A stretch of 24,000 bases of DNA from Neobacillus sp. Marseille-Q6967 (GTDB lineage Bacteria > Bacillota > Bacilli > Bacillales > Cytobacillaceae): assembly GCA_946151075.1 (NCBI GenBank), contig OX267715.1, positions 883,881 to 907,880 on the forward strand. Direction: 5' to 3'. Below the pieces are notes generated by a model that was not told where the DNA came from, did not search any database, and was given only the letters and a program-made list of their open reading frames with translations. Below are positions 2,579-18,979 of this stretch, piece by piece. Both the position numbers and the translations under genes were made by a program. The stretch's first letter is position 1. Every line of letters starts with the position of its first letter.

Positions 2579-2720
2579 AGAATATAATTTTTTAAAAAAA
2601 GATTAAGGGATATATTCTTGATGCTTTTTTATTATATAGTATAAAAACGATTCCTGAGGTGGGTATTAGCCAAAGGGCTTATCTTATATTTATCATATTG
2701 AGAGAAAGAAGTAGAACAAG

Positions 2721-3203
2721 GGTAGCCATTGGCTACCCAAATTTTATTTGTTAATTGAAAAGTGTAGGCAATAGTCCTGATAGGCTACCCATATTGAATT
2801 TACGAGTTAAATAGGGTAGCCAATACGCCTCATTGGCTACTCAAATTAAGTTTAGGAGATGAAAGGGTAGGCAATAGTCTTGATAGGCTACCCAAATTGA
2901 ATTAACGAGATGATTAGAGTAGCCAATAGGCCCCATTGGCTACTCAAATTAAGTTTAGGAGATGAAAGGGTAGGCAATAGTCTTGATAGGCTACCCAAAT
3001 TGAATTAACGAGATGATTAGAGTAGCCAATACGCCTCATTGGCTACTCAAATTGAGTTTAGGAGATGAATAGGGTAGGCAATAGTCTTGATAGGCTACCC
3101 AAATTGAATTAACGAGATGATTAGAGTAGCCAATACACCTCATTGGCTACTCAAATTGAATTAACGAGATGAATAGGGTAGCCAATATACCTGATTAGCA
3201 ACG
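2721..3203. repeat. Tandem array of hairpin-containing repeats: about 52-bp unit in two alternating variants giving a 103-bp higher-order period, about 9 half-units
   Basis: GTAGCCAAT-N7-ATTGGCTAC hairpins start at 2816, 2919, 3022 and 3126, with a degenerate one at 3178. They alternate with GGGTAGGCAATAGTCTTGATAGGCTACCC hairpins. Each hairpin is followed by the tail CAAATTGAATTAACGAGATGAWTAG. A loop-less palindrome GGGTAGCCATTGGCTACCC at 2721-2739 opens the array, which lies between the 3' ends of convergent genes. Confidence 0.9.
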
Positions 3204-3242: not shown

Positions 3243-4178
3243 CTACGAATTTGTGTTTTTACTATAAGTTGCTGTTATTTTTCTCCTTTTAAATATGTTT
3301 GTATTTGTTCCAATATAAACCCCTGCTAAAACAAATGCTGCTCCGATGCCATGAGCCAATGTGAAGGTTTCATGTAAGAAGAAAGTTGCCATTAGAACAG
3401 CCGATAATGGCATGACATTAATAAAAATAGAAGCTTTTGCTGCTCCGACCTCTTTAATACCATAATAGTACATGATGAATGAAACCACGGTGACAAAGAT
3501 GCTCATATGAGCAATCGCTATCCAAGTTGAAGAATTAGCCTGCAAAATATCCTGCCAGGATGTTTCATAGGATGCAAATGGTAATAAAAATACCGTACCA
3601 AAGGCTACTGCATAGGTAGTCGATTCGACTGCACTATATTTTTTTAAAACCACTTTACCTACCACGCTGTACAATGCCCAGCTTACCACCGCACCAAGCA
3701 AGACGAAGTCAATAGGCTCGAAGCCAAATTGTAAAAGAGATAAGATATGACCATCTGTGATAATAAAGGCAGCTCCTGATAAGGCAATCACCATTCCAAT
3801 AATATTATTTTTAGTGATTTTTTCTTTTAGAAATAATCCCGATAAGAGAACAATCAATACAGGGTTTGAGGCAATAAATAAGGAACTTTTAATAACGGGT
3901 GCTTGTTTGGTTGCGATAAAAAAACAAATATTATAAAGTGCGATTCCAGTTAAGCCGAGAACGGCAAATAAACCATAGTCTTTAAGAGTTGGAGTCTTGC
4001 GATTTTTTTCCATCATCCACATAAGCGGAAATAATAGGATGGCGGCCACGAAAAATCGTAAAAATGCGACCGTGGCTGGATCAAAGCTTTGAACGGCTAT
4101 TTTTCCAGCAATAAATGCACTTCCCCAAGTGGCTGTAGCTAAAGTTAACATACCGTAGATAATCCATTGCTTTTTCAT
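3243..4178 (-). CDS. DMT superfamily (EamA-type) permease, 10 TM
   Basis: The protein is hydrophobic throughout with two EamA-like halves. The ORF track starts at 4184, but the ATG at 4178 sits 9 nt from a GAGGGA SD whereas 4184 sits only 3 nt away, so I prefer 4178. Confidence 0.8.
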   Translation of the reverse strand: MKKQWIIYGMLTLATATWGSAFIAGKIAVQSFDPATVAFLRFFVAAILLFPLMWMMEKNRKTPTLKDYGLFAVLGLTGIALYNICFFIATKQAPVIKSSLFIASNPVLIVLLSGLFLKEKITKNNIIGMVIALSGAAFIITDGHILSLLQFGFEPIDFVLLGAVVSWALYSVVGKVVLKKYSAVESTTYAVAFGTVFLLPFASYETSWQDILQANSSTWIAIAHMSIFVTVVSFIMYYYGIKEVGAAKASIFINVMPLSAVLMATFFLHETFTLAHGIGAAFVLAGVYIGTNTNIFKRRKITATYSKNTNS

Positions 4179-4301
4179 TATCATGTTTCCCTCAATTATT
4201 TTTTAATTTTATATTCCGTATTGTAACATTCTTTTCATACTTCGGAATATTATAATAATATTTTCTAAAAAAATACTTGCGTAATATATTATTATTTTCC
4301 A

Positions 4302-4330: not shown

Positions 4331-4346
4331 GAGTTGAAAATAAAAT

Positions 4347-4379
4347 TCCTTTAATATGGTCCAGAGAGGCCAAAAAGGC
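4347..4379 (+). promoter_or_regulatory. PyrR binding loop (anti-antiterminator hairpin), site 1
   Basis: The sequence CCTTTAATATGGTCCAGAGAGGCCAAAAAGG contains the conserved PyrR recognition core UCCAGAGAGGC. The upper stem is GG/CC and the lower stem CCUUU/AAAGG. Confidence 0.7.
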
Positions 4380-4417
4380 GAAAATAAAATTCGTACATAA
4401 ATGTCCGAATCTATTAG

Positions 4418-4458
4418 TACCCTTTTGTCCTTTTTGGATGGAAGGGTATTTTATTTTG
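4418..4458 (+). terminator. Leader attenuator (intrinsic terminator) downstream of PyrR site 1
   Basis: The stem GTACCCTT / AAGGGTAT is followed by TTTATTTTG. It sits between the PyrR site and the start codon of the MFS gene. Confidence 0.7.
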
Positions 4459-4465
4459 CCTATGT

Positions 4466-4500
4466 ATCTTTTAATCAAAGTCCAGTGAGGCTTGAAAGGA
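4466..4500 (+). promoter_or_regulatory. PyrR binding loop, site 2, overlapping the Shine-Dalgarno sequence of the MFS gene
   Basis: The sequence TCTTTTAATCAAAGTCCAGTGAGGCTTGAAAGGA carries the variant core UCCAGUGAGGC with upper stem AAG/CUU. The 3' arm GAAAGGAG is the SD for the ATG at 4510. Confidence 0.6.
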
Positions 4501-4509
4501 GAATCATCA

Positions 4510-5730
4510 ATGAATTATCAGAAAAAAACAGTAGTAGCATCCACTGCAGGGTTAACGTTAGAGGGCATGGATATCATGTTCATATCGTTTGCTATGTCCA
4601 TGATTATTGCAGAATTCAACATTGATATGGCAACCGGCGGACTAATTTCTTCTATTACCAACTTAGGAATGCTATTCGGGGGTATTCTTTTCGGGATACT
4701 AGCTGATAAATTTGGAAGAGTTAAAGTTTTTACTTATACCATTATATTGTTTGCTATAGGGACTGCACTTACTGGATTAGCCACAAATATTGAACAGGTT
4801 TATATTTTTAGGTTTATTGCAGGATTAGGTGCAGGTGGAGAATACGGAATTGGAATGGCACTAGTCGCTGAAGCATGGCCAAAAAATAAACAAGGACGAG
4901 CTTCTTCTTATGTGAGTGTTGGTGCTCAATTTGGTGTAATCCTAGCAGCATTACTAAGTGCATTGATTCTTCCGACTTGGGGATGGAGAGGATTATTTTT
5001 CATCGGAGCTCTCCCGGTTATCTTTGCCTTTATTGTCCGCAAGAACTTAGATGAGTCACCAGAATGGCTTGCATCACAAAAGGTTAAAAAGCAGAAACGA
5101 AATCAAGGAAATTTAAAGGAATTATTTTCGACTCGAAAAACAGCCCTAACTACGGCAGCATTAGCCATCATGGCAACGGTTCAAATTGCCGGCTATAACG
5201 GTTTGATGATCTGGCTTCCATCTATGCTTCAACAATCCCAAGGCTTGTCGGTTTCAAGTTCTGCTCTTTGGACAATTAGTACAGCGGTCGGAATGATTGT
5301 AGGAATGCTGACTTTTGGACAATTTATGGATCGACTTGGAATGAAACGGACGTATGGAATCTTCCTGCTTGCGTCAGCGGTAGCAGTCTTTTTATACTCA
5401 TATGCCTCTGGAAGCACAGGAGTTCTCATTGGAGGTGCCATCGTAGGATTCTTCTCAAATGGAATGTTCGCTGGTTACGGGGCCCTTATCAGCTACTACT
5501 ATCCAGTGGAAATACGTAGTACTGCAACGAACACGATTTTTAACTTTGGACGAGCGTTAGGGGGACTATCTCCAATCTTAGTTGGATTTATTTTAGAGAA
5601 TGCAAACGTAACGGTTGCGATGAGCTATCTAGCGATTCTTTATTGCATCTCGTTTATCGCGATGGTGAGTTTGAGAAAAGGTAAGGACAGCCGTAAACAA
5701 GAAACCATGACAACACTTAAAGCTGTATAA
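4510..5730 (+). CDS. MFS transporter (12 TM, sugar-porter/AAHS-like), predicted PyrR regulon member
   Basis: It has the MFS motifs GILADKFGRVKV (loop 2-3) and FRFIAGLGAGGEYG. The ATG at 4510 lies 8 nt after GAAAGGAG, and I judge the TTG at 4492 from the ORF track to fall inside the leader. Confidence 0.85.
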   Translation: MNYQKKTVVASTAGLTLEGMDIMFISFAMSMIIAEFNIDMATGGLISSITNLGMLFGGILFGILADKFGRVKVFTYTIILFAIGTALTGLATNIEQVYIFRFIAGLGAGGEYGIGMALVAEAWPKNKQGRASSYVSVGAQFGVILAALLSALILPTWGWRGLFFIGALPVIFAFIVRKNLDESPEWLASQKVKKQKRNQGNLKELFSTRKTALTTAALAIMATVQIAGYNGLMIWLPSMLQQSQGLSVSSSALWTISTAVGMIVGMLTFGQFMDRLGMKRTYGIFLLASAVAVFLYSYASGSTGVLIGGAIVGFFSNGMFAGYGALISYYYPVEIRSTATNTIFNFGRALGGLSPILVGFILENANVTVAMSYLAILYCISFIAMVSLRKGKDSRKQETMTTLKAV

Positions 5731-14830: not shown

Positions 14831-14860
14831 TATCTGACAGTTGTACAGGTGGTGGAAAAG

Positions 14861-15256
14861 ATGGATGTCAAATTAGTAGAAGAGATTACCAGATTAGTAT
14901 TGTCTAAGTTGGAAGAATCCTCAGAACCAACTTTAAACTTCGACTATCCTCCTCTTACTGAAGAGGAAGTTAAGGAGTGGAATGAGATTTCTTCGGCTAT
15001 TATGTTTTCGAAAGGAACAAATGATGTTCCTTCCTATTTAGCCCCACTGACGAACGAAGAATTAAAAATGTGGAATGTCTTATCTGACAGAATTGGATTT
15101 AAAAAGAGCGTTAATTTTTCGAGTGTGGCAGAACAATCTGGCTACCGTCCACTTACGGACAAGGAGTTAAAAGACTGGAATGATTTGGGGAAGAAAAGGG
15201 TTGTTCGGGTAAGAAATTCTAAACATGGCGAAGTAAAATTTTTTCAACATCAATAA
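14861..15256 (+). CDS. Small BMC-associated protein: encapsulation-peptide-like N-terminal helix plus three PLTxxExKxWN repeats (unknown function)
   Basis: The N-terminus is MDVKLVEEITRLVLSKLEE. The repeats are PPLTEEEVKEWNEI, APLTNEELKMWNVL and RPLTDKELKDWNDL. The ATG at 14861 follows AGGTGG by 9 nt, and the track start at 14849 is a less likely GTG. Confidence 0.65.
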   Translation: MDVKLVEEITRLVLSKLEESSEPTLNFDYPPLTEEEVKEWNEISSAIMFSKGTNDVPSYLAPLTNEELKMWNVLSDRIGFKKSVNFSSVAEQSGYRPLTDKELKDWNDLGKKRVVRVRNSKHGEVKFFQHQ

Positions 15257-15280: not shown

Positions 15281-16819
15281 GTGATCCCAATTATTGAGTT
15301 TGATCTTGACTTGAAATCAATCCAAGAGATGAGAGATGTGGTAAAAAAAGCAAAAGAAGCACAAGCAAAGTTTCAGTATTTTTCACAGGAACAGGTAGAC
15401 CAAATCGTAAAACATGTGGCAGAAACAGCCTATAAGAAATCTGATATATTGGCCCAAATGGCGGTAGAGGAAACAGGAATGGGCGTTGTTGAACATAAAA
15501 AGATCAAAAACGAACTGGGCTCGATGGGTGTCTATGAATCTATTAAAGATGAGAAGACAGTCGGAGTGATCGGGTCAGATTCAAAGAGGAAAATAACGGA
15601 AATTGCTTATCCATTTGGCATCATTGCAGGGATTATCCCTACGACTAATCCTACTTCTACTGCTATTTTCAAGACTCTTATCTCACTAAAGACAAAAAAT
15701 GCTATTGTCGTAAGCCCTCATCCTTCTGCGGCCAAGTGTACAGTAGAAGCATTAAAAATTTGTTCACAGGCTGCTACTGAAGCTGGTGCTCCGGAAGGCG
15801 TAATTGGCTGGATGACCAAACCAACCATGTCAGCAACAACGGAACTTATGCACCACAAGGATATCAATTTAATTTTAGCAACGGGCGGAGGCGGTTTGGT
15901 TCGAGCTGCGTACAGTTCAGGAAAACCGGCATACGGTGTTGGGCCTGGAAATGTGCCGGTCTACATTGACAGGTCAGCCGACGTAAAACAGGCAGTCAGA
16001 ATGATTATTGATAGTAAATCCTTTGATAATGGAACCATTTGTGCGACTGAGCAATCTATTGTCGTTCATAAGAATATCAAAGAAATGACACTTAGAGAGT
16101 TAAAGAATAATGGCGGGTACTTATTAAATGAATCAGAAAAGGCAAGGGTTGAAGACGTTATATCTCCAATCAGGGGTAAGCTGAACCCAGCAATAGTGGG
16201 CAAAACCGCAGAAATTATTGCATCCATGGCAGGTATTCATGTTCCAGAAGGAACCCGTGTATTAATTGCCGAGGAGGATTTAATCGGAAAAGAAATACCA
16301 TTTTCCATTGAAAAACTATCTCCTATCTTAGGTTTCTATACAGCCAGTCATGTAGATAAGGGGTTAGAAATATGTCAGGGGTTATTAGATATTGGCGGAA
16401 GAGGGCATAGTCTCGCTCTTCATACGAATGATGAAGAAGTAGCCAAGCGGTTTGGCCTAGAAATGCCCGTTTCGCGGATTTTGGTCAATACCTTGGCATC
16501 CATCGGTGCAGCTGGAGCAACAACGGGGTTAACCGCTTCGTTAACACTTGGTTGTGGATCGTTTGGCGGGAATATAACCGGAGATAACATCACCGCTCGA
16601 CATTTAATTAATATAAAACGTATTGCGTATGGAATAAAGGATGTTAGCTTACCAAAGGCATTACAATCTAATAGAGGTAGAGTGGAAAAAGAATCGGCCA
16701 GTGTTGATGGTATAGTAGAACAGGTCTTAAAAGAAGTAAATGACAAAACACCTGGAATTAATTCGGACTTGATTGCAGAATTAGTTAAAAACGTCATGGC
16801 GCAGTATCAAAAACAATAG
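15281..16819 (+). CDS. CoA-acylating aldehyde dehydrogenase (PduP/EutE class) with C-terminal extension carrying two encapsulation-peptide-like helices
   Basis: It has IIPTTNPTST and a catalytic Cys in GTICATEQS. The GTG start follows AAGGAGAGAGGAG. The C-terminal tail contains ...SVDGIVEQVLKEVNDK...NSDLIAELVKNVMAQYQKQ. Confidence 0.85.
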   Translation: MIPIIEFDLDLKSIQEMRDVVKKAKEAQAKFQYFSQEQVDQIVKHVAETAYKKSDILAQMAVEETGMGVVEHKKIKNELGSMGVYESIKDEKTVGVIGSDSKRKITEIAYPFGIIAGIIPTTNPTSTAIFKTLISLKTKNAIVVSPHPSAAKCTVEALKICSQAATEAGAPEGVIGWMTKPTMSATTELMHHKDINLILATGGGGLVRAAYSSGKPAYGVGPGNVPVYIDRSADVKQAVRMIIDSKSFDNGTICATEQSIVVHKNIKEMTLRELKNNGGYLLNESEKARVEDVISPIRGKLNPAIVGKTAEIIASMAGIHVPEGTRVLIAEEDLIGKEIPFSIEKLSPILGFYTASHVDKGLEICQGLLDIGGRGHSLALHTNDEEVAKRFGLEMPVSRILVNTLASIGAAGATTGLTASLTLGCGSFGGNITGDNITARHLINIKRIAYGIKDVSLPKALQSNRGRVEKESASVDGIVEQVLKEVNDKTPGINSDLIAELVKNVMAQYQKQ

Positions 16820-16836
16820 GGGTTGAGCATTGTCAC

Positions 16837-17336
16837 AGTTTGTTGCGGATAACAAGAAATACTCTTGGATGGGGCGAAATACTCTCGGATGGGGCGAAAT
16901 ACTCTCGGAAGGCGAGAAATACTCTCGGAAGGCGAGAAATACTCTCGGATGGGGCGAAATACTCTCGGAAGGCGAGAAATACTCTCGGAAGGCGAGAAAT
17001 ACTCTCGGATGGGGCGAAATACTCTCGGAAGGCGAGAAATACTCTCGGAAGGCGAGAAATACTCTCGGATGGCGGAAAATACTTGCGGATGGCGGAAAAT
17101 ACTTGCGGATGTCGGAAAATACTTGCGGATGTCGGAAAATACTTGCGGATAGCGGAAAATACTTACGGATGGCGGAAAATACTTACGGATGGCGGAAAAT
17201 ACTTGCGGATGGCGGAAAATACTTGCGGATAGCGAGAAATACTAGCGGATAGCAAGAAATACTGGCGGATGGCGAGAAATACTGGCGGATAGCAAGAAAT
17301 ACTGGCGGATAGCGAGAAATGCTCTCGGCTAGCACA
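16837..17336. repeat. Array of about 24-25 tandem 20-bp direct repeats (consensus AAATACTnnCGGAnnGCGnn) inside the BMC operon
   Basis: Units start every 20 bp from 16857 to 17317, preceded by a degenerate unit at 16837. Sub-families occur in blocks: ACTCTCGGATGGGGCG and ACTCTCGGAAGGCGAG first, then ACTTGCGGATGGCGGA, then ACTGGCGGATAGCRAG. An exact 60-bp higher-order repeat occurs three times across 16877-17056. No stop codon occurs in any forward frame for about 300-400 bp. Confidence 0.95.
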
Positions 17337-17358
17337 CAAAAATTAGGAGGAATGTTAA

Positions 17359-17643
17359 ATGGCTATTAATGGTGCACTTGGGATGATTGAAACTAGAGGA
17401 TTGGTCGCTTCCTTGGAAGCAGCAGATGCGATGGTCAAGGCCGCAAATGTAAATTTAGTGGGAAAAGTTCATGTTGGCGGAGGGATCGTAACTGTACTTG
17501 TAACAGGGGACGTAGGGGCAGTAAAAGCCGCAACTGAGGCAGGTAGTGAAGCGGCACAACGTGTGGGTGAGATTCTCTCCGTTCACGTCATTCCAAGACC
17601 ACATAATGAACTCCAAATGATTTTACCGAAATTTGAGGGATAA
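17359..17643 (+). CDS. BMC-H shell protein (PduA/EutM type hexamer, single Pfam BMC domain)
   Basis: It has [41 protein letters not shown] and [18 protein letters not shown] is present. Confidence 0.9.
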
Positions 17644-17669: not shown

Positions 17670-18326
17670 ATGATTAATCTAAACTCACAACGGATTGTCG
17701 AAGAGGTGTTAAAGCAGCTGCAGGAAAGAATGAATTCAAAAACCGAAACCCCCATTGGAGTTTCCGCCCGGCATTGCCATTTTAATGAAAAAGATTTAGA
17801 AACCCTATTTGGAAAAGGTTATCAACTTACGAAAAAGACAGATTTATTGCAGCCAGGGCAATTTGCGGCAAACGAAACCGTTACGATTGCGGGGCCAAAA
17901 GGAAGTATTGAGAGAGTGAGGGTACTTGGGCCTCTAAGGAACGCAACCCAAGTAGAAGTAAGTCAAACAGATGCGATGAAACTTGGGCTGAATCCCCCGA
18001 TACGAGAGTCGGGAAATTTACAGGGTTCTTCGCCCATTACCATTATTGGTCCAAAAGGGAGTATTTACCTTGAAGAAGGGTTGATTATTGCTCAAGCACA
18101 TATTCATATGCCGCCTGATGTTGCACGGCAGCTACATGTACAAGACGGGGATTATATAAAAGTGGAAATAGATAATCCGATACGCCCAATATCTTTTGAG
18201 AAAGTAAGGATAAGAATCTCGTCTAAATATGTATTGGAAATGCATATCGATACGGATGAAGCCAATGCGGGTTTTATCAAAAGCGGACAAAAAGGAAAAA
18301 TCATTAATGCAGGCAAAATCCTATGA
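17670..18326 (+). CDS. pduL: Phosphate propanoyl/acyl-transferase PduL (PTAC) with N-terminal encapsulation-peptide-like helix
   Basis: It shows the duplicated PduL fold signature: GVSARHCHF..., VRVLGPLR, AQAHIHMPPD and LEMHIDTDEANA. The N-terminus is NSQRIVEEVLKQLQERM. Confidence 0.85.
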   Translation: MINLNSQRIVEEVLKQLQERMNSKTETPIGVSARHCHFNEKDLETLFGKGYQLTKKTDLLQPGQFAANETVTIAGPKGSIERVRVLGPLRNATQVEVSQTDAMKLGLNPPIRESGNLQGSSPITIIGPKGSIYLEEGLIIAQAHIHMPPDVARQLHVQDGDYIKVEIDNPIRPISFEKVRIRISSKYVLEMHIDTDEANAGFIKSGQKGKIINAGKIL

Positions 18327-18979
18327 TCAATAAAGAATTGATTGAAGAAATCGTTAAAGAAATCCTGCGGAAAATCGATTCTCCCATAAAAAACAAACTT
18401 CTTGTAAATCATCGAGGTATGGAAAAAGACCTTGAATCAATCGAATGGTTAAAGAGATACTGGCATGTAGTAGAGTTGACCAATGCGAATGAACATATCC
18501 CCCCATCTAGTCAAAATGCAGTCTTTTTAGAAGTAGACCAGGATTTATTTGTAAAGGCGGCTCTTGGAATTACTGATACGAAAGAGAGTCTACTCTTTTC
18601 AAAAATATTGCTTCACGGGATGCAAATTGATTTTATCCTTATTGACTCCTTATGGCGGGCTCTGAATGAAACTAATTCGCATACAAATAAGAGGTATTTA
18701 AAGATGTTATTAGGCTATCAAAATCAACTTAGTAATTTTGGGGTCCGCTTTTTTCCATCTTGCCACTATATAGTACCTGACCAAAAGAGTCCTAACATGA
18801 TAGGAGCCGAGTATCAAGAAAAATTGTTAACCAAAGCGGTAATTGATGGATGGAAAAAGGACTCCATCACAGTTAAGAGTAACACGATTATCACCCCAAT
18901 GGCCCGAGAGGCGGCAAAAGAAAGGAAGATTACTATATTAAGGGGTGAGGTAAATGACGAAAGCGTTAGGAATGATTGA
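18323..18979 (+). CDS. BMC-associated protein of unknown function with encapsulation-peptide-like N-terminus
   Basis: The ATGA overlap with the pduL stop indicates translational coupling. The N-terminus is MINKELIEEIVKEILRKI. The C-terminal ITPMAREAAKERKITI resembles a motif I associate with uncharacterised proteins found after pduL/eutD in Firmicute eut loci, from memory and unverified. Confidence 0.6.
   Translation: MINKELIEEIVKEILRKIDSPIKNKLLVNHRGMEKDLESIEWLKRYWHVVELTNANEHIPPSSQNAVFLEVDQDLFVKAALGITDTKESLLFSKILLHGMQIDFILIDSLWRALNETNSHTNKRYLKMLLGYQNQLSNFGVRFFPSCHYIVPDQKSPNMIGAEYQEKLLTKAVIDGWKKDSITVKSNTIITPMAREAAKERKITILRGEVNDESVRND

Follow-up and report, generated by a model that had tools for sequence, protein, structure and literature searches.

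A 24,000-nucleotide stretch of the Neobacillus sp. Marseille-Q6967 genome (contig OX267715.1; here called the window) contains a bacterial microcompartment (BMC) operon in which a long array of tandem 20-bp repeats separates the gene for an acylating aldehyde dehydrogenase (AldDH) from the gene for a BMC-H shell protein. It is highly probable that this array is a non-coding member of a dispersed family of 20-nt satellites, inserted here in one sub-lineage, turned over by slippage and unequal exchange, and carried along as a passenger when the operon is transcribed, with no role in the microcompartment. The array is a new member of a repeat class that is known but mechanistically unexplained.

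The array and its orthologous junctions

Tandem Repeats Finder (TRF) places the array at 16855-17328, with a period of 20, 23.7 copies, 90 % match and 0 indels. Read unit by unit, 23 perfectly phased 20-bp units span 16857-17316, with a degenerate unit at each end (16837 and 17317). The heptamer AAATACT occurs 23 times, from 16857 to 17297, and all 22 spacings between successive copies are exactly 20 bp. Unit positions 1-7 (AAATACT) and 11-13 (GGA) are invariant (23/23), and C10 is present in 22 of the 23. A 17-nt core pattern, with at most two mismatches allowed, has 24 matches in the array against a chance expectation of 0.11, and none in the rest of the window. The units form a mosaic of CT, TG/TA and AG/GG blocks, and an exact 60-bp repeat of higher order (A-B-B) is present in three copies at 16877-17056; TRF also reports a period of 60. 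The array fills the AldDH-BMC-H gap (539 bp, 16820-17358), which is the sole long spacer of the operon. An earlier note, made from the sequence alone, had described a phased array of about 24 units in this gap, a near-invariant AAATACT/CGGA core, sub-families arranged in blocks and a threefold exact 60-bp repeat; TRF and the unit table bear out all four. The parts of the array and its flanks are as follows.

15281-16819, + strand: AldDH gene, upstream flank (Pfam Aldedh; TAG stop at 16817-16819; product 100 % identical to a recorded protein of Neobacillus sp. Marseille-Q6967)
16820-16856, + strand: degenerate 5' head, GGGTTGAGCATTGTCAC followed by the head-type unit AGTTTGTTGCGGATAACAAG (16837-16856)
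16857-17076, + strand: body block 1, 11 CT units (AAATACTCTCGGA...), including the three exact 60-bp three-unit repeats (unit table, TRF)
17077-17236, + strand: body block 2, 8 TG/TA units (unit table)
17237-17316, + strand: body block 3, 4 AG/GG units (unit table)
17317-17336, + strand: degenerate 3' tail unit AAATGCTCTCGGCTAGCACA, recognized by its likeness to tail units elsewhere
17337-17358, + strand: ancestral junction sequence with the Shine-Dalgarno (SD) sequence of the shell gene, AGGAGG (17345-17350)
17359-17643, + strand: BMC-H shell protein gene, downstream flank (Pfam BMC; identical protein in L052 and L053, described below)
16830-17252, + strand: spurious overlapping open reading frame (ORF), the longest of three, from stop-free units
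16840-17232 and 16865-17152, + strand: the other two spurious ORFs from stop-free units

The same junction can be followed in related operons (loci compared carry L numbers; their genes are simple ORF calls). Two metagenome contigs, L052 and L053, encode a BMC-H protein identical to that of the window and also carry repeats at the junction. L052 has a gap of 97 bp with about 3 degenerate units and begins like the array of the window (TAG-GGTTGCGGATAG), and L053 has a gap of 419 bp with 18 units of AAATACTGGCGGATGGCAGA. The flanks of these two contigs are 95.5-97.7 % identical to each other, and either is about 79-80 % identical to the window. Four further operons are free of the array: those of Neobacillus sp. 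NPDC097160, Neobacillus sp. SAB-20_R2A, Bacillus sp. FJAT-49825 and a metagenome contig (L054-L057). Their AldDH is 75-78 % identical, the whole operon is kept, including the gene for a DeoR regulator, and only 20-38 bp lie between the stop codon and the ATG. In all four the motif ATTTAGGAGGAA lies 5-20 nt past the AldDH stop, and the same motif is found in the window at 17337-17358. The metagenome scan, whose relatives are at most 75 % identical, gave about 25 further loci with AldDH directly before BMC-H, typically with a gap of about 20 bp, and found the repeat in none of 84 additional loci. Among the loci compared, an array at this junction is thus confined to the window, L052 and L053.

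Set side by side, these junctions show the array as an insertion between the AldDH stop codon and the SD sequence of the shell gene, found only in the sub-lineage that comprises the window, L052 and L053. In the simplest history, the array would have entered once, between stop codon and SD region, in a common ancestor of these three, and would then have expanded and had its units replaced independently in each line. The array would grow and shrink by replication slippage or unequal recombination, of which the exact 60-bp triplication and the subtype blocks would be the traces. The operon evidently does not need the array, because orthologous operons have junctions of about 20 bp without it. 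The same junction is therefore known in related organisms in an empty state and with about 3, 18 and about 24 units.

A mis-assembled or inflated repeat is a very improbable explanation of the array. Arrays of the family often break short-read assemblies, and the exact copy number given here could be wrong, but arrays recur at the same loci in assemblies made independently from isolates and from metagenomes, the subtype blocks are ordered, and the degenerate ends run continuously into unique flanks.

Dispersal and evolution of the repeat family

A search for two cores in succession (AAATACTnnCGGA-N7-AAATACTnnCGGA), with each bacterial species represented by one genome, returned 51 loci; it demanded two perfect cores, and diverged or solitary units escape it. 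Forty-nine of the loci belong to Neobacillus and its allies, several per genome: N. niacini-group strains, N. vireti, N. driksii, several 'Bacillus sp.', a Neobacillus metagenome-assembled genome and B. niameyensis. The other two are 2-unit chance matches inside ORFs. The 13-nt family core AAATACTnnCGGAT forms arrays in at least 13 Neobacillus/'Bacillus' genomes, with 4-8 array loci per genome in the relatives. When grouped by their flanking proteins, the loci fall into about 22 independent groups. TRF copy numbers are 3-22 units at most loci, with a maximum of 181, and the unit is 20 nt long, now and then 21. The longest array (L046:994-4630; B. niameyensis SIT3, NZ_LN831197.1 224994-228602) has 181 copies of AAATACTCTTGGATAGAGAA in 3.6 kb between rnhC and pheT, with a unit identity of 99 %. 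Two 20-mers of the window are themselves array consensus sequences elsewhere: AAATACTTGCGGATGGCGGA of block 2 in N. niacini MER TA 87 and N. driksii, and AAATACTGGCGGATAGCGAG of block 3 in N. vireti and Bacillus sp. OK048.

All Neobacillus arrays are intergenic, and their neighbors are unrelated housekeeping genes: CorA, a radical-SAM enzyme, aminotransferase/sirtuin, a fructose phosphotransferase system, MsrAB, SufB/DUF72, isocitrate lyase/DUF1694, acyl-CoA synthetase/RecQ, NadA and M42 peptidase/SspI. No recurrent neighbor gene, recombinase or transposase was found among the flanking proteins of the locus groups. Comparison of filled and empty junctions revealed no target-site duplication, and the core pattern was not found in phage contigs. 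A mobile element with its own transposase or recombinase was rejected on these grounds, together with the housekeeping flanks.

Dispersal to about 22 unrelated loci, taken with the array-free orthologous operons and their junctions of about 20 bp, therefore removes the link to the microcompartment; the earlier note had leaned towards such a link, through either a scaffold protein or an RNA element that uncouples enzyme and shell stoichiometry. The same evidence bears on an operator or iteron array for the DeoR-family regulator of the operon. DeoR-family repressors bind tandem operators of about 20 bp, as does E. coli GlpR, and a DeoR gene is present in the operon. However, the roughly 22 loci have unrelated genes and no DeoR neighbor, and orthologous operons retain the DeoR gene yet lack the array. 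Dispersal and DeoR-bearing empty sites thus contradict such a binding array, which the earlier note had entertained, and we find it hardly credible.

The unit is not uniformly conserved. Thirty arrays with 305 units were sliced by phase without anchoring. At positions 1-7, 10-14 and 16 (AAATACT, CGGAT) about 2 % of units deviate from the consensus of their array. At positions 15 and 18-20 the share is 13-33 % (chi-square p about 1e-105 against the core), and most of these changes are between A and G. Arrays also have a polarity, running from a head, (A)ATTAGTTGCGGATAG, through a body, AAATACTnnCGGATrG, to a tail, AAA(T/C)ACTCTCGnATA, and each of these classes is able to expand. Head units of the form (A)TTAGTTGCGGATAG open arrays at many other loci, and the window has the same head (16837) and tail (17317). 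In L029 (2600-2860) and L011 (2230-2620, minus strand), the head GGAATTAGTTGCGGATA occurs five times, the body twice and the tail AAACACTCTCGGATrAC 6-10 times, in that fixed order; each unit class can therefore amplify separately.

Body positions 8-9 track the genome rather than the locus. They are TG at 6/6 loci of MER TA 87, AT at 5/5 loci of MRMR6 and 4/4 loci of AA13, and GG at 7/7 loci of N. vireti. Arrays at different loci of the same genome share them in 78 of 87 pairs, compared with 24 of 46 pairs for the same locus in different genomes (permutation p<0.0002). This uniformity implies, as far as such patterns can, either homogenization between loci or co-evolution with a factor acting in trans.

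Arrays are oriented mostly with their genes. Among locus groups with co-directional neighbors, 12 are sense and 2 antisense, a bias that is significant against a 50:50 null (p=0.013) and not against the roughly 75 % leading-strand gene bias (p=0.28). GC skew at third codon positions (GC3 skew) is positive on the array strand in 18 of 22 groups, including both antisense groups; 8-kb skew is noisy. The sense bias would be equally explained by leading-strand orientation: with p=0.28 against that null and GC3 skew in agreement, transcription and replication are inseparable as its cause. In the published family list for B. niameyensis, five arrays lie in one orientation over 3.6 Mb of one scaffold. 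Taking the scaffold orientation as given, this speaks against a strict replichore rule.

Arrays lie at contig ends in L002, L004, L009, L014, L031 and L040, and L028 is a 238-bp contig of the repeat alone. Because arrays break contigs, copy numbers from short reads are lower bounds. One locus (acyl-CoA synthetase ... RecQ) seems to have been split by its array into L031 and L004.

Coding, RNA and DNA-level explanations

Three forward ORFs of 95-140 aa cross the array of the window. They begin at TTG codons (16830, 16840 and 16865), as the earlier note had listed, and its example peptide, KYSRKARNTLGWGEILSEGE, was correctly read. These ORFs, and a Joint Genome Institute (JGI) annotation that has a 152-aa gene on the L053 array, could speak for a translated, basic, Trp/Gly-containing repeat protein, a microcompartment scaffold like CsoS2, but we give this next to no chance. 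All six frames of the array are open over 300-420 nt, not just the three forward frames named in the earlier note. Random tandem 20-mers are stop-free in three frames in 17-24 % of cases and in six frames in 5-14 %; such openness thus carries no information. The forward ORFs stop at the onset of GGATAG units, and the in-phase TAG that most family units carry closes every frame within three units. Since 20 is not a multiple of 3, each unit gained or lost shifts the frame. A check for SD motifs found no valid start with an SD-like sequence upstream for the array ORFs. The unit sequence differs between L053 and the window, and orthologous operons have no array. A search of 5.8 billion protein sequences gave only two matches, both unannotated, array-derived and without a Pfam domain; they are the arrays at the M42 peptidase/SspI and isocitrate lyase/DUF1694 loci. 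The disordered repeat protein proposed in the earlier note is rejected on the stop content of the family, six-frame openness, frame arithmetic and the lack of homologues. Public annotations place 'hypothetical proteins' of 113-152 aa on arrays at L053:1560-2018 (JGI, 152 aa), L138:5001-5345 and L139:5001-5342. Such spurious calls arise because unit variants are stop-free.

An RNA function has to be considered in the setting of the operon. The genes before the array encode an SDR, the DeoR regulator, a class-III aminotransferase, an APH-type kinase, a 135-aa unknown protein and the acylating AldDH; those after it encode BMC-H, PduL, a 218-aa unknown protein, a second BMC-H and an amino-acid permease. 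We take the operon to be of the aminopropanol/aminoacetone (RMM-like) microcompartment type, judging from BMC locus types. Consensus scans, on which all our promoter and terminator predictions are based, predicted no promoter, including an internal sigma-70 promoter, and no terminator on the + strand in or next to the array, because of which the array is probably co-transcribed with the operon. In this operon an RNA element would present one GGA per 20 nt in an unstructured, purine-rich RNA, which would titrate or recruit CsrA, Hfq or another RNA-binding protein; or it would uncouple the expression of enzyme and shell by serving as a spacer for RNA processing or stability. The probable co-transcription favors this idea, as do the GGAT that is invariant in every unit across the family, the fold of the sense RNA (z = -0.7 against shuffles, i.e., unstructured), the 12 to 2 excess of arrays sense to co-directional neighbors, and the 52-nt repeats of B. 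coagulans, which are reported to be transcribed.

Other observations stand against an RNA element. The array has no match in Rfam at the gathering score or at E<=1. A hairpin with GGA in its loop can form in only 6 of the 23 window units; the earlier note had rightly confined this 5-bp hairpin to the six GGAAGGCGAG units. A conserved RNA hairpin was also sought in the wider family and rejected: the CT/GGAAGG, AT and niameyensis variants are self-complementary but the center of the pairing shifts, other unit variants pair in shifted registers or not at all, and there is no consistent covariation. Several family arrays appear to fall outside predicted transcription units, insulated by predicted terminators on one or both sides: the L025 array lies between two convergent terminators, that of L139 between a terminator and a TTGGAA-17-TATTAT promoter, and that of L017 just after a terminator. 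The sense bias fits leading-strand orientation equally well, both antisense groups fitting the GC3 skew, and the array is missing from orthologous operons. An RNA element is therefore quite improbable, and the CsrB/Rsm-type RNA of GGA hairpins that the earlier note had in mind is not supported as a property of the family.

At the DNA level, a lineage-specific protein might recognize AAATACTnnCGGAT and polymerize along repeats whose 20-bp period corresponds to two helical turns. Such a track might serve nucleoid organization, replication or recombination, or act upstream of promoters, with a local effect on transcription within the operon. Several features agree with it: the core is conserved while other positions are hypervariable, the units keep an exact 20-bp phase and indels are very rare, positions 8-9 are genome-specific, as would be expected from co-evolution with a trans factor, and many arrays fall outside the predicted transcription units, with a terminator on one side and a promoter on the other or with convergent terminators around them. 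The same idea has been put forward for the class (Subirana and Messeguer, 2021; PMC8161180). However, no candidate protein and no recurrent neighbor gene were found, copy numbers of 3-181 and absence in close relatives argue against a locus-specific requirement, and a symmetric DNA binder would not need the observed strand bias. We regard a DNA-binding track as unlikely, though it deserves more weight than the RNA element. Both overlap with our conclusion on the array, since they concern function and it concerns identity. Likenesses to known motifs (E. coli ops, the CsrA SELEX consensus, the Spo0A and DnaA boxes, B. subtilis Chi AGCGG, Rok TACTA and sigma-54) were set aside, all being partial, involving variable positions or having the wrong spacing.

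The reading of the array as a satellite passenger has to accommodate several points that weigh against it, at least in its purely neutral form. Three results are hard to square with pure neutrality: positions 8-9 are uniform within genomes and different between them, the core persists across species that share only about 80 % identity in coding DNA, and the same loci hold arrays in 5-7 species. The strand bias shows some directional constraint. An insert of 540 nt may alter expression of the shell gene. Finally, dispersal within the source genome, 24 kb of which is covered, is inferred from relatives. The two-turn period, the conserved core, persistence and genome-specific positions 8-9 suggest a sequence-specific process at the DNA level that recognizes or homogenizes the family; it could be a binding protein or a homogenizing mechanism such as ectopic gene conversion. 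The most likely reading of the array in this operon is still that of a tolerated, co-transcribed passenger. It would be carried passively on the operon transcript and play no part in microcompartment function, and it would be tolerated because its purine-rich sense strand has no predicted terminator and no SD-preceded start. The neutral variable-number tandem repeat (VNTR) among the options of the earlier note thus came closest to the truth, but it misses a family that is dispersed, polar, conserved in its core and already catalogued.

For work on microcompartments the outcome is negative: the array is no new BMC component, and its three ORFs should not be annotated as genes. For the study of bacterial satellites the locus is a clean natural experiment, in which the empty, ~3-, 18- and ~24-unit alleles allow the effect on transcription and translation to be measured. 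The core, polarity, strand bias, persistence and concerted change narrow the possible mechanisms and point to a process at the DNA rather than the RNA level. In practical terms, arrays of the family break short-read assemblies and spawn spurious gene calls. There is a small chance that the arrays are tracks for the polymerization of a lineage-specific nucleic-acid-binding factor whose specificity co-evolves with positions 8-9. If so, the presence of one variant per genome would be explained, and copy number within an operon would be a fast-evolving dial on downstream expression, set here on the shell-to-enzyme ratio of the aminopropanol microcompartment.

Other features of the window and comparison with known repeats

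The gene content of the BMC locus varies among close relatives. A 218-aa ORF without a Pfam match (18323-18979) lies between PduL and the second BMC-H of the window, which lacks the Ldh-like gene found after the second BMC-H of L052-L056. The 135-aa ORF directly upstream of AldDH (14849-15256) has no significant Pfam family. An ORF of 120-154 aa, also without a Pfam match, occupies the same position in all the orthologous operons (L052, L054-L057), and its product may be an uncharacterized BMC-associated protein. Elsewhere in the window, a PyrR binding site (4344-4454; Rfam RF00515, 68 bits) lies directly 5' of an MFS transporter gene (4492-5730), and not of a pyr biosynthesis gene.

The family resembles several known repeat systems in part. 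Mycobacterial interspersed repetitive units (MIRUs) are, according to reports attributed to Supply et al. (1997/2000), dispersed intergenic minisatellites, often within operons, mostly co-oriented with genes and variable in number. The family of the window is likewise dispersed, intergenic and variable in copy number, and its 12 sense against 2 antisense groups would resemble the MIRU orientation, although they fit leading-strand bias equally well. MIRU units, however, are 40-100 bp long and have small ORFs overlapping the neighboring stop and start codons, whereas the unit here is 20 bp without such an ORF arrangement, and many arrays have a terminator on one side and a promoter on the other. 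Like the repetitive extragenic palindromic (REP) sequences and bacterial interspersed mosaic elements (BIMEs), the family is lineage-specific, dispersed and intergenic, has a conserved core and often lies near terminators. REPs are palindromic and mobilized by RAYT transposases; the repeats here are direct, not consistently palindromic and without an associated transposase. With CsrB, RsmY and RsmZ the array shares many GGA motifs at a spacing of roughly 20 nt; unlike them, it has no Rfam match, no conserved GGA loops and no predicted promoter or terminator of its own, and other members of its family appear, from predicted signals, to be untranscribed. Plasmid iterons are also direct repeats of about 20 bp, or two helical turns, but this family is chromosomal, occupies many housekeeping loci without a rep gene or origin context, and reaches 181 copies.

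The closest relatives are repeats of Bacillus. A class of 20-21-nt non-coding repeats of constant size was reportedly described in Bacillus by Subirana and Messeguer in the Journal of Bacteriology in 2020. In their later survey of 176 Bacillus genomes, two thirds of the tandem repeats have units of constant size, either 51-53 nt (1886 cases) or 20-21 nt (781 cases) (Subirana and Messeguer, 2021, Int J Mol Sci; PMC8161180). These repeats form species-specific non-coding families with a short signal in every unit, their arrays are seldom conserved in length between strains, and they have no established function. A protein that polymerizes on DNA (nucleoid), a match of 20 nt to two helical turns, and transcribed small RNAs or sponges were offered as hypotheses (PMC8161180). 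Family Bacillus_Fam_142_20_5 of their Table S3 includes a 3609-bp, 180-copy array of B. niameyensis at 224994-228602. L046, which we retrieved with the core pattern of the window, is this array, and its listed consensus is our tail-type unit. B. niameyensis is also listed with other 20-nt arrays of 89-92 perfect copies, and Table S1 gives B. vireti many repeats in a single 20/21-nt size column. The GG, TG and AT body variants of Neobacillus were not found in the portion of the supplement that was searched, nor were the Neobacillus unit strings found in a literature search.

The window holds a second, unrelated array at 2720-3195, between convergent genes for an SDR (1763-2578) and an EamA transporter (3243-4184). 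It has about 9 units of about 52 bp with a 103-bp higher-order repeat (94 % match), each unit consisting of a GGGTAGCC...GGCTACCC hairpin and a AAATTGAATTTACGAGATGA linker, and no relatives of it were found among the loci compared. This array fits the 52-nt constant-size class of the same authors.

The 20-bp array shares with the 20-21-nt class a constant 20-nt unit, a non-coding nature and a conserved signal in each unit. Its family has several arrays per genome in relatives, species-specific variants, and a length that varies even where flanks are 95.5-97.7 % identical (~3 units in L052 against 18 in L053); by such comparisons copy number in the family is shown to change fast. The source species lies outside the set surveyed by Subirana and Messeguer. 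New with respect to their description are the site within an operon, the polarity from head through body to tail, the strand bias, and the concerted change of positions 8-9 across the genome.

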